A stretch of 64,000 bases of DNA from a virus: the IMG/VR virus record IMGVR_UViG_2706795545_000001; one strand, 5' to 3'. A program made the position numbers and the translations under genes. Positions 8,331 to 51,947 of the stretch are shown in pieces. Position 1 is the first letter of the stretch. Each line of letters starts with the position of its first letter. The notes under the pieces are model-generated. The model had not been told where the DNA came from. It searched no databases and was given only the letters and a program-made list of their open reading frames with translations.

Positions 8331-8378
8331 GGAAGAACTAAAAGTGCCGACTAAAAGTTTATATTTTTCGGGAAAGAA

Positions 8379-8557
8379 GTTAAAATAAGGAAGAACTAAA
8401 AGATGGGGAGAGCGGGAGGGGTCGTCGTAGCGGGAAGTTGCCCCGCCTCTTCCAAGGGCGGGGTAAAATTTTAGTTGAAATAAGGAAGAACTGAAATAAA
8501 ACTAAATGGGAATACTCAACATTCCACTATATAGTTGAAATAAGTAAGAACTGAAAG
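8379..8557 (+). CRISPR. CRISPR-like mini-array: three 24-nt repeats
   Basis: GTTAAAATAAGGAAGAACTAAAAG (8379-8402), GTTGAAATAAGGAAGAACTGAAAT (8474-8497), GTTGAAATAAGTAAGAACTGAAAG (8534-8557). Intervals 71 and 36 nt. AAAAGTTTATAT promoter at 8353-8364. No cas genes in the window. Confidence 0.6.
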
Positions 8558-8611
8558 ATGTCAGCTCTAGTTATTCGTTTTTATAAAGGGTGAATTGGTA
8601 TTTTTCTCGGG

Positions 8612-13795: not shown

Positions 13796-13887
13796 TTTTA
13801 TACCATGTTTCTATTCTCAAACAGTTATTAAATATATATTTTTGTTATAGTATCCCAGCTTCTACGTTTAATCTTTCTGGGGGTTAA

Positions 13888-14193
13888 GGGGGCGGAAGTC
13901 CCCCTCCGTAAGGTGGGGGATGGATAGCCACCTTATAGAAACCTTTTATACTAAAAAAGAGATAATTCTTAGACCTCTGGCTGTAAGAGCTGAGGTCGTA
14001 CCCTCGGGACTGGGGGAACTTACGCCTGTGGAGAGTGACCCTCCGTAACCCCTCTTCCACACGGGGCATTACAGAACGGTTCCGTTCGATGGAACCTCCG
14101 CTGTGGGTGAAGGGGGATCGAGGTTGCTCTGAGAAGCAGGAAATCCTCACCGTGAGGTGGGGATGCCCCGTCCGTGAGGGCGGGGTAGTTCAC
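13888..14193 (+). mobile_element. non-autonomous IS200/IS605-derived element (SMN1-like MITE, about 306 bp) retaining the tnpB 3' end/omega-RNA region
   Basis: Begins after GTTAA with hairpin GGGGGCGGAAGTCCCCC. Contains a tnpB-tail-like GLGELTPVE coding remnant. Ends in hairpin GCCCCGTCCGTGAGGGCGGGG plus TAGTTCAC. No transposase. Confidence 0.7.
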
Positions 14194-14322
14194 TCATGAG
14201 CGAACATAAAATGATTGAGATGAAAGTGTATGAACAAACGGTTAGCCTAAGATAGTTAAGATTTTATACACTATTTTTCTCATATTTTGGATAATATCTC
14301 TATTATATTAGAATCAATAAAA

Positions 14323-22802: not shown

Positions 22803-24092
22803 TCATAGGATTTCATAATATTTAATATCAATCCTTAGCCCTTGGGCTTCAACAGAGTCACGGGGAAACCCGTTACCCCTCCGCCCCTTTAGCGGGATAA
22901 CCCCAACCCACAACCTTGGAATTCCAAGGATGTGGGGAAACCCGCACATCTTGAGGTATATGTTGAGAGATGCATTCAATTGCCTATCTAGAGTGAACCC
23001 ACACCTCTCACACCTAAAAGTCCTGCCGACCTTTCGGGAAACCCATCCACATCTGGGGCAGGACTTTGAAGTGAGGTGTGGGTCAACCTCCTTAACGAAA
23101 GAACCGTATAAGGGAGCCTTGTATTTAAGCACGCGATGAATTGTCCTCCATACAGTCCTTGAAACCTTCTTAGACAGCTTGTCATTAGCGTCTTGGAACA
23201 TTGACTGTTTATTCAACTTTTCAACAGCAAAAATCGTCACAGGATAAATTTCCAGCAACTTATTCACGAACTTGTGAACGTAATCCAACACGCGATTCCT
23301 CTCCCTATGAGAGTATTTCCTCATCAACACCTTCCCCTTCCTACCGTGTTTAGAGGCAAAGGACTGTATTCTACTCCTCTTCAGCTCCATACCGAATTTT
23401 AGGCTATACAACTCCTTCATCGAGAAAGTGATGAATTTCTCCCCATCATAAGCGTCCAATGTGTAAAGGTTACTATCAATAGATAGAAAGTCAAGGGGAG
23501 TTGACCAAGGTAACTTATAACGAAATGGTAGGTGAACCTTATCCTCCTTTATCACTGGCTCACCCAACTCAAGTCCTTCAACCCTTCTAGAGAACCATTT
23601 GTGAGACCAAGAGAAGGTGACGTATTCGTAAGGTCTTACTGTAATCCTTACGCTCTCACCCTCAACCTTCCTAAGAGTTGACTTAACCCTAACGTAAACC
23701 TTCCTCAGTGTTGGTTTCCTCAATGACGCTTGTCCTTTTTCAGCCCTCCTCCTCCAACTATTCAAGATTGAGTAAGCGTCGCTTATTGCCTTGTCAACAT
23801 AATGGGAAGCTAGCTTGTTAATCTTCTCTAACTCATCCCTTAACGTCTTGTAAACCTCCTTCTTCTTAGGCAGGGTTATCTTAATCTTCGTTAGGACTTT
23901 CTTACCTTTCTTTACTTCCTTCCTCTCTATCTTAGTCCTCTCCCATAACCAGTCTAGAGCTTTCTGCAATAGGACTCTGTAATTCTCCAGTAGTATTTTC
24001 GTCTCCTCCTTCTTATTATTCTTCAGAGAGTACGTTAGGTAAACGTATTCCTCTTGTGGTTGAAAGTTATTAAGCCTTAAGTTCTTCAACAC
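22803..24092 (-). CDS. tnpB: TnpB RNA-guided endonuclease
   Basis: RuvC-I LSIDSN, RuvC-II AVEKL, Zn finger CPRCG..CERCG, RuvC-III DRQLNASLNI all intact. Confidence 0.9.
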   Translation of the reverse strand: MLKNLRLNNFQPQEEYVYLTYSLKNNKKEETKILLENYRVLLQKALDWLWERTKIERKEVKKGKKVLTKIKITLPKKKEVYKTLRDELEKINKLASHYVDKAISDAYSILNSWRRRAEKGQASLRKPTLRKVYVRVKSTLRKVEGESVRITVRPYEYVTFSWSHKWFSRRVEGLELGEPVIKEDKVHLPFRYKLPWSTPLDFLSIDSNLYTLDAYDGEKFITFSMKELYSLKFGMELKRSRIQSFASKHGRKGKVLMRKYSHRERNRVLDYVHKFVNKLLEIYPVTIFAVEKLNKQSMFQDANDKLSKKVSRTVWRTIHRVLKYKAPLYGSFVKEVDPHLTSKSCPRCGWVSRKVGRTFRCERCGFTLDRQLNASLNIYLKMCGFPHILGIPRLWVGVIPLKGRRGNGFPRDSVEAQGLRIDIKYYEIL

Positions 24093-24654: not shown

Positions 24655-24804
24655 TGTATGAAATTTTATGACGAAATAATATAAACTTTACGGTTTATCT
24701 GAAACTGCTAACAACGGCTTCGATCTGAAGTGCATGGAGCCTCTTTTCTGAAATCACAGTTGTGATAACAAACTACAAACCTTCGTCCCCTCTAGAGTAA
24801 GAAG

Positions 24805-48056: not shown

Positions 48057-48446
48057 TTAAAGTTCGTTCGTATTTTCCTGTATGTTTAGCTCAACCTCTA
48101 TCTTCTTAATAAAGAACGTAGTTTTGCCTCCTGTACAAACTTTAGTATAATAAACAATAACTTCATCACCGTCATCGTTCTCGAACTCGTCAACACCTAC
48201 CCAACTTTTATAACCGATGTAATTATTTACCTGGTTTTCTGCACCGTTAATAGGGTAAAAACCTAAGTTATCTAGAAAATCATATAAGTCGTCATATTCC
48301 TCTTCTGTTAGCTCTATAGGTTCTTTGAAATCAACTACGATTGAAATCGTATTATTTTCAGTTTTTTGTGGTTGACCTACGTTAAATTCTGCATTCTTTG
48401 AGTTGAAGAATTCTTTAATGGTTTGAATTACTTCTTCGTAATCCAT
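48057..48446 (-). CDS. AcrID1-like small acidic protein (putative anti-CRISPR)
   Basis: MDYEEV...F...IVVDFKEPIELTEEEYDDL resembles the recalled SIRV AcrID1 pattern. Leaderless strong promoter. Confidence 0.45.
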   Translation of the reverse strand: MDYEEVIQTIKEFFNSKNAEFNVGQPQKTENNTISIVVDFKEPIELTEEEYDDLYDFLDNLGFYPINGAENQVNNYIGYKSWVGVDEFENDDGDEVIVYYTKVCTGGKTTFFIKKIEVELNIQENTNEL

Positions 48447-48914: not shown

Positions 48915-49067
48915 ATTATTTTTTGATCAACAAGGGGGGGAGTGGGGTCAAGATAGTAGAGGTGGTTATGCCGTGGGAGGTGATTCCGCCGTGACACCCA
49001 CAGGCACAGCAGATACAGCAGAGGTGGATACAGAGATGTTTAAGGAGATACAGGAGGTGGTTATGCC

Positions 49068-51428: not shown

Positions 51429-51947
51429 ATGATGTTGATTTTGGATCTAGACGGTACACTTTTCGATACTTCTGCCAGGTGGAACGAATGTGAGAAGATA
51501 TCTAACAAAAACAAACGCCTGTTTTGGGCACCAGACCGTGTGTTTTGGGAATGTTATCAATCACCGAGGTTCATGAACCTGGACGAACCTAAGTGGGAAG
51601 TTATCAGGTTTGTTAAACGGTTAATTGAGGAGAAAAAGCCAGAAGTGATAGCAGTAGTCAGCGGTCGTTCAGAAAAACAACGCGAAGCCACTCTCAAACA
51701 GCTCTCGGAGATAGGGATAGAGCCGAACGAGGTCGTGCTGAGGGGCGAGAAGGACTTCAGGAAAGATTATGAGTTTAAGAAATTCGCCATAAAGGAGTTA
51801 ATGGAAAAATATGACCAGGATAAGGTCATAGTGATAGATGATAGTGACGCAGTGCTAGAACACCTGGAAGAAGAAGGGCTGATAGAAATAATCGATGCAA
51901 AAACGATAAAGAAAAGAGAGAAAAAGGAGAACATGAATACCCCTTAA
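51429..51947 (+). CDS. HAD-family phosphatase, polynucleotide kinase 3'-phosphatase-like
   Basis: ILDLDGTL (motif I), VSGR (II), LRGEKDFRKDYEFK (III), IDDS (IV). Confidence 0.85.
   Translation: MMLILDLDGTLFDTSARWNECEKISNKNKRLFWAPDRVFWECYQSPRFMNLDEPKWEVIRFVKRLIEEKKPEVIAVVSGRSEKQREATLKQLSEIGIEPNEVVLRGEKDFRKDYEFKKFAIKELMEKYDQDKVIVIDDSDAVLEHLEEEGLIEIIDAKTIKKREKKENMNTP

Follow-up and report, generated by a model that had tools for sequence, protein, structure and literature searches.

The window, i.e., the whole stretch of 64,000 nucleotides of the IMG/VR virus record IMGVR_UViG_2706795545_000001, contains at 8331–8611 an intergenic region in which no open reading frame (ORF) of 40 or more amino acids is present on either strand; it is preceded by the ORF 7995–8330 and followed by an ORF from 8612. 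Three 24-nt direct repeats, noted in a preliminary description of this DNA, were located here by direct reading and by a pattern search allowing at most 3 mismatches: R1 (8379–8402), R2 (8474–8497) and R3 (8534–8557), all on the plus strand; the search gave 3 matches in the window and 0 in 100 shuffles. The consensus is GTTGAAATAAGGAAGAACTGAAAG, from which R1 deviates at 2 positions and R2 and R3 at 1 position each. The intervals of 71 nt (8403–8473) and 36 nt (8498–8533) given in the same description were found as described. An eroded fourth copy, R0 (TAGGGAAGAACTAAAAG; 8328–8344, plus strand), has retained the 3′ 17 nt of the repeat and overlaps the stop codon (8328–8330) of the ORF 7995–8330; it starts 58 nt 5′ of the part of R1 that it matches, a distance equal to one ordinary period of repeat and spacer, and the same fossil is seen in the relative L022. 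With R0 and the three repeats, the order of the locus is R0, 34 nt, R1, 71 nt, R2, 36 nt, R3.

The 34 nt between R0 and R1 (8345–8378, plus strand) hold the BRE/TATA-like motif AAAAGTTTATAT (8353–8364), which had been pointed out earlier as lying upstream of the repeats and is indeed present; as R0 is placed one repeat period before R1, this promoter-like motif falls within a fossil spacer. About 26 of the 34 positions of the latter are identical in L022 (counted by eye). Just one further near-identical motif occurs in the window, at 24690 on the minus strand, 31 nt 5′ of the ATG of an ORF; the same spacing would put the transcription start of the array at ca. 8386–8389, within R1. R1 (GTTAAAATAAGGAAGAACTAAAAG) is degenerate (2 mismatches) and is identical to R1 of L022 at 23 of 24 positions. 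It is followed by a conserved GC-rich element of 71 nt (8403–8473, plus strand) with a thermostable hairpin at ca. 8438–8466, by R2 (GTTGAAATAAGGAAGAACTGAAAT, ending with CTGAAAT; 23/24 to the host repeat), by the 36-nt spacer C (8498–8533, plus strand), the sole true spacer of the array, and by the terminal repeat R3 (GTTGAAATAAGTAAGAACTGAAAG; 23/24, change G12T). Archaeal transcription terminates at oligo-T runs, and the T5 run at 8578–8582 (feature 8578–8589, plus strand), which overlaps the TATA-like box of the next gene, is for this reason the likely end of the array transcript. The array is on the same strand as the flanking genes, with the TATA-like motif 5′ and the T5 run 3′, and its orientation is that which host arrays have relative to their leader. 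The TIGR array of this virus lies at a distance of ca. 1.6 kb, within the 2 kb given in the preliminary description. A separate 27-nt direct repeat (7338–7364 and 7386–7412; 96% identical, 48 nt apart) was observed in or near the ORF 7312–7590 on the minus strand.

The window has a thyX gene with 70–78% identity to its counterparts in Acidianus, Stygiolobus and Sulfolobus viruses, and one block of the window is 82–86% identical to the monocaudaviruses SMV1–4. The virus is taken to be ATSV, a large tailed spindle virus, or a near relative of it; the results given below are consistent with a host of the genus Acidianus, archaea of acidic hot springs. No cas homologue was detected in the 64-kb window (tblastn with 15 host Cas-locus proteins; nothing below E 0.03). 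Two further observations were made on the gene content: the acidic 129-aa product of the ORF 48057–48446 (minus strand) has phrog_24726 (function unassigned) as its sole match, with no Pfam match and no sequence match among all PDB chain sequences at E up to 1; and in the ATSV-like relative G001 (C1:56908–57045, minus strand) an open frame of 244 aa contains a weak tyrosine-recombinase match (PF00589, E 2e-7).

Repeat identity with host arrays

The viral consensus is the exact CRISPR repeat of Acidianus hospitalis W1, A. ambivalens, A. infernus and Acidianus sp. HS-5, and the assignment to a Sulfolobales repeat family, proposed from the 3′ end of the repeat, is borne out by these four genomes. 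A mismatch-tolerant search of 325 genomes of the host's order gave exact copies in three genomes and the GTCG variant in a fourth, which were named through exact protein matches as A. ambivalens (60 copies), A. infernus (337), Acidianus sp. HS-5 (146) and, for the variant, Stygiolobus azoricus; the consensus also occurs without mismatch in the viral contig L001. S. azoricus and Stygiolobus sp. CP850M thus have a repeat that is one base off (GTCG versus the viral GTTG), the latter species having 113 copies of GTCGAAATAAGGAAGAACTGAAAG in two arrays (species-genome scan). In A. hospitalis W1 (CP002535.1 = L164), an array of 39 repeats, 37 of them exact, was reached via a permease gene and adjoins a Cas6-like gene (L164, 8142–8900). 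Its two trailer-end repeats (5120–5202) carry the change G20A (CTAAAAG); R0 and R1 of the window carry this variant too, as does R3 of L022. The arrays of Acidianus sp. HS-5 with this repeat flank cas1, type I-D csc2/csc1, cas6 and a cas10-like gene; overall, the host arrays adjoin cas1, cas6, type I-D and type III genes.

The chromosomal arrays of the four Acidianus hosts thus agree with the viral array in the 24-nt repeat, in orientation and in the length class of their spacers (host spacers 30–39 nt, mode 34–35; viral spacers 36, 36 and 33 nt). Unlike the viral array, they consist of 30–180 repeats, have adjacent cas genes and possess AT-rich leaders of ca. 300 nt with a promoter ca. 75 nt upstream. 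Comparison of the viral upstream region with four host leaders gave shared matches of at most 11 nt; as a host-like leader is missing, spacer uptake by Cas1–Cas2 is doubtful. When 438 spacers from six host genomes were compared with the window, the best matches were chance matches of only 16–19 nt, and none of the 438 is like a viral spacer.

Relatives and turnover of spacers

Related contigs were obtained from IMG/VR and metagenomes: L022 (= L151), L005 (= L150) and L152. Relative to the window, these contigs show identities of 88% (upstream ORF), 82% (R0–R1 block), 87.5% (71-nt element) and 83% (downstream part). At the syntenic site, L022, L005 and L152 have R0, R1 and the GC element, followed by three repeats and two spacers (A and B; 36 and 33 nt) that are unrelated to spacer C of the window; R2–R4 keep 21–23 of 24 positions despite a flank divergence of 12–18%. 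Host-matching repeats, spacers of host length that vary between strains and the lack of cas genes, taken together, make this a genuine, changing virus-borne mini-CRISPR array. The cas-less mini-array of the preliminary description is thereby supported.

Spacer B (33 nt; L022, 1505–1537, minus strand) was also observed, at 31/33, in the SMV4-like contigs L001 (5187–5219) and L013 (2606–2638). There it sits between two repeats, with flanks unrelated to L022, and its terminal repeat variant (...GAAAT) is common to the SMV4-like and ATSV-like lineages. The occurrence of one spacer in two lineages suggests that repeat-spacer modules are exchanged between co-infecting viruses; on this ground, new spacers probably arrive by recombination between arrays, not by Cas1–Cas2.

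Virome contigs from two studies (three runs) contain spacer C with one letter changed, and the same contigs carry the array version of the window; these are DNA contigs, and no RNA run was found to contain the stretch. In a virome run, the array contigs have a depth of 200–400, and contigs of low depth (ca. 4) join the repeat to other spacers. These other spacers correspond to the trailer end of the A. hospitalis W1 array, with its final two spacers and the trailer itself, and differ from it by one letter, in the trailer segment; a W1-like host was therefore present in the sample, the virus being at roughly 100-fold higher depth, and virus and a host bearing the repeat co-occur.

The GC-rich element

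The 71-nt interval, listed in the preliminary description beside the 36-nt one as a separation between repeats, was rejected as a spacer: it is conserved between relatives whose true spacers differ (63/72 identical in L022) and is outside the host length range; it is instead a conserved, structured GC-rich element. Its GC content reaches 72% over 50 nt, the highest value in the window (mean 36%). The hairpin (here ca. 8439–8465) is the sole structure predicted at 80 °C in the putative transcript (−7.6 kcal/mol, equalled by 0.7% of shuffles); at 37 °C the fold is no better than that of dinucleotide shuffles (z −0.55) and is significant on neither strand. The hairpin followed by TTTT scores terminator-like. 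Rfam gave no match for the element at gathering scores or, noise aside, at E up to 10. No tRNA or tmRNA was found at the locus, and a tRNA-derived attachment site is accordingly not supported. A small protein encoded in the element was considered and rejected: the window and L022 share an open ATG frame of 23–30 codons, and the homologous motif CGTAGC falls in another frame in L001 and SMV4. Other stretches of the window with a 50-nt GC content of at least 62% are only 13870–14208, 22836–22919, 48956–49024 and 51698–51755; as the virus is AT-rich and infects a hyperthermophile, such stretches may represent structured RNAs or segments that code for Gly/Pro/Ala-rich protein.

The hairpin had been taken for an insertion sequence (IS) end; the hairpin itself is real, the link to an insertion sequence was not found. 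It resembles, at 21–22 of 25 positions, a family of intergenic hairpins of A. infernus. This family (CGCCCCTTCTAGGGGCGGGGTAAAG; genome G280) has 13 dispersed copies, e.g., C1:2130838–2130862 and 1274810–1274834, usually situated shortly 3′ of gene ends; it was seen in A. infernus only and is lacking in A. ambivalens, Acidianus sp. HS-5 and two genomes of Stygiolobus. Three copies were inspected and follow a PhoH, a PIN and an unknown gene, with no transposase; an IS or MITE terminal hairpin is thus not supported, the copies inspected adjoining ordinary genes.

A GC hairpin abuts a CRISPR repeat in four lineages and two repeat families: window/L022, L001/L013, SMV4 and ATV. In L001/L013 and SMV4, the hairpin ends 1–2 nt before the repeat and is the sole stretch of these loci with a 50-nt GC content of at least 62%. 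SMV4 (KP282678.1 = L142; 546–612, minus strand) has an unannotated single repeat, GTCGAAATAAGTAAGAACTGAAAT, with a GC hairpin and a TATA-like box directly 5′; this lone repeat, without a spacer, stands where L001/L013 hold theirs, and no repeat was found at the syntenic site of SMV1 and SMV3. In ATV (AJ888457.1 = L165; 37470–37620), the 46-nt "spacer" between two TGTAACGACACAAAGAAACTAAAAC repeats is a GC hairpin with the core CCCCACGTGGGG; the annotated ORF34, on the opposite strand, overlaps this mini-array. A consensus fold of the GC elements across lineages is weak and devoid of compensatory pairs (four sequences only). The literature searched contained no description of GC hairpins that recur beside CRISPR repeats in several virus lineages.

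Discussion

Mini-arrays in archaeal viruses are already known, including that of the related ATV, which is noted in PMC6858448. The anatomy of such virus-borne arrays, namely, host-matching repeats, strain-variable spacers of host length and no cas genes (PMC6858448; review PMC11656645), was described for the Saccharolobus portogloboviruses SPV1 and SPV2 (Medvedeva et al. 2019, PMC6858448, a paper that distinguishes four consensus repeats, A–D). The SPV1/SPV2 arrays and the present locus are alike in being intergenic and cas-less, in having 1–2 spacers and repeats that match those of the host, and in that the spacers vary between related strains at one genomic position. The SPV1/SPV2 arrays have their own promoter and the locus has a TATA-like motif. 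They differ in that the SPV arrays possess host-like leaders and most of their spacers match the sister virus, whereas for the locus neither a host-like leader nor a target was found; its repeat family (GTTGAAATAAGGAAGAACTGAAAG) is of the Acidianus/Stygiolobus type, and, unlike in the SPV arrays, its active part comes after a GC-rich hairpin and two fossil repeats. ATV resembles the present virus as a large spindle-shaped Acidianus virus with two host-type repeats after a TATA-like box (AJ888457.1, 37526–37619) and with GC-rich sequence, capable of forming hairpins, next to the repeats as well as between them; in contrast to the locus, its repeats belong to another family (TGTAACGACACAAAGAAACTAAAAC), the GC hairpin itself makes up its single 46-nt "spacer", and an AT-rich spacer of host length comparable to spacer C is lacking. 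Single repeat units that act as RNA anti-CRISPRs (Racr; PMC11656645) and the locus have in common virus-borne CRISPR repeats without cas genes, SMV4 being the single-repeat form of the hairpin-repeat module; the locus differs from Racr in having a genuine spacer between two near-perfect repeats. The literature found describes no Racr activity in any Sulfolobales system.

The locus is best regarded as a mini-CRISPR array, probably functional, that lacks cas genes, is carried by a large tailed spindle virus and would depend on the CRISPR machinery of its Acidianus host. Host identity of the repeat, spacer length, spacer turnover, the lack of cas genes and conservation of the hairpin are established for the locus. 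Starting from the viral promoter in the fossil spacer, or by read-through from upstream genes, a transcript of ca. 200 nt would comprise part of R1, the GC hairpin, R2, spacer C, R3 and the T5 terminator. Host Cas6 would cut R2 and R3 8 nt before their 3′ ends and give a crRNA in which the tag ACUGAAAU is followed by the 36-nt spacer and then by the first 16 nt of R3. By analogy with SPV1/SPV2, host effectors of type I-D, I-A and/or III may take up this crRNA and turn it against DNA or RNA with the spacer sequence in a competing virus or plasmid, with superinfection exclusion as the outcome. The GC hairpin may serve as a heat-stable 5′ leader of the pre-crRNA in place of the AT-rich leader of host type.

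Several observations count against a guide function. A host-like leader is missing upstream of the array. A target and PAM for the 36-nt spacer, which the preliminary description had proposed to look for among Sulfolobales viruses, were not found in the collections searched: protospacers of spacers A, B and C are absent from isolated viruses, plasmids, IMG/VR, metagenome contigs, the virus itself and its relatives, the scans of large collections being made with exact words of 18–24 bases and Acidianus viruses being sparsely sampled; for spacer C, neither a target in the 325 genomes of the taxonomic order of the host nor a PAM was found. Most spacers of SPV1/SPV2, by contrast, match close relatives. 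R2 ends with T, not G, and the last base of the 8-nt crRNA tag is thus altered; the predicted transcription start falls inside R1; and the hairpin with its TTTT, judged from the terminator-like score, could stop transcription before R2.

Two of these points, the missing targets and the missing host-type leader, are also what would be expected if the locus were passenger DNA, i.e., a trailer-end fragment of a host array that was gained by recombination and is drifting without function; the CTAAAAG variant that R0 and R1 share with the two trailer-end repeats of the W1 array, and the half-eroded R0, agree with such an origin. It is nevertheless an improbable explanation of the array as it stands, since this has been kept at one site across a flank divergence of 12–18%, with R2–R4 retaining 21–23 of 24 positions, the strains differ in spacer content, one spacer is retained in two virus lineages and 0 of 438 host spacers resemble the viral ones. 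The exchange of the spacer B module between lineages implies repeat-mediated recombination, and the repeats might on this basis be regarded as a recombination or attachment site that allows integration into, or DNA exchange with, host arrays; the tyrosine-recombinase-like frame of the relative G001 (E 2e-7) and a mention of phage integration into CRISPR arrays (PMC12045711) could be cited in its favour. One repeat would suffice for this purpose, however, viral sequence was seen in no host array inspected, and the viromes contained no contigs with a virus–host array junction, the repeat-joined contigs being plain host trailer spacers only; such a role is very unlikely.

An RNA anti-CRISPR decoy, which the preliminary description had named beside the mini-array, is the main rival and deserves more weight than passenger DNA, though it too is unlikely. 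Here the conserved working unit would be the repeat with the GC hairpin (R1-hairpin-R2 in the window, hairpin-repeat in SMV4): Cas6 and backbone subunits would bind a crRNA look-alike with the rigid 71-nt hairpin as its "spacer", dead-end complexes would result and host immunity would be blunted, the true spacer being a passenger or serving a second function. GC hairpins abutting repeats in four lineages and two repeat families are in line with this, as is the better conservation of R1 between window and L022 (23/24) relative to the adjacent fossil spacer (ca. 26/34); single repeat units are established as Racr for other CRISPR types (PMC11656645), and a decoy would account for the lone repeat of SMV4 and for the layout of ATV. 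On the other hand, R1 and R0 are the most degenerate copies, no consensus structure is common to the lineages, the element at 37 °C folds no better than dinucleotide shuffles (z −0.55), and a decoy has no need for real, strain-specific spacers of host length between near-perfect repeats. R1-hairpin-R2 fits a repeat-derived RNA without a functional spacer, but R2-spacer C-R3 does not. A mixed function could also be considered, the repeat-hairpin-repeat part acting as decoy and R2-spacer-R3 as guide.

More generally, the large spindle viruses (ATSV-like, SMV4-like, ATV) may, as a tentative and rather doubtful proposal, share a module in which a heat-stable GC hairpin is joined to host repeats. 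The hairpins of ATSV and ATV stand where a spacer would be, flanked by a repeat on each side, and host Cas6 would thus excise a structured "pseudo-crRNA"; this might be a decoy that jams the assembly of type I/III effectors or a viral small RNA matured by Cas6. Real spacers would be later additions to the module.

Conclusion

Borrowing of host immunity through a cas-less mini-array is a known viral strategy; under the guide-array interpretation favoured above, it is here joined to an unusual heat-stable GC-rich hairpin. A full-text literature search, with the original ATSV paper outside its reach, gave no description of the array or of the repeat sequence. In 2016, Hochstein et al. reportedly found that ATSV can be grown on Acidianus hospitalis W1. 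If so, this would be one of the few virus-borne mini-arrays that are directly testable, because W1 possesses both an array with this repeat and a Cas6-like gene. A TIGR-Tas guide-RNA system lies within the same 4 kb of the viral DNA, and with the mini-array one virus thus appears to carry two unrelated RNA-guide devices next to each other, the first being viral and the second borrowed from the host. The pairing of hairpin and repeat across four lineages may show that these viruses adapt host crRNA processing to other ends.
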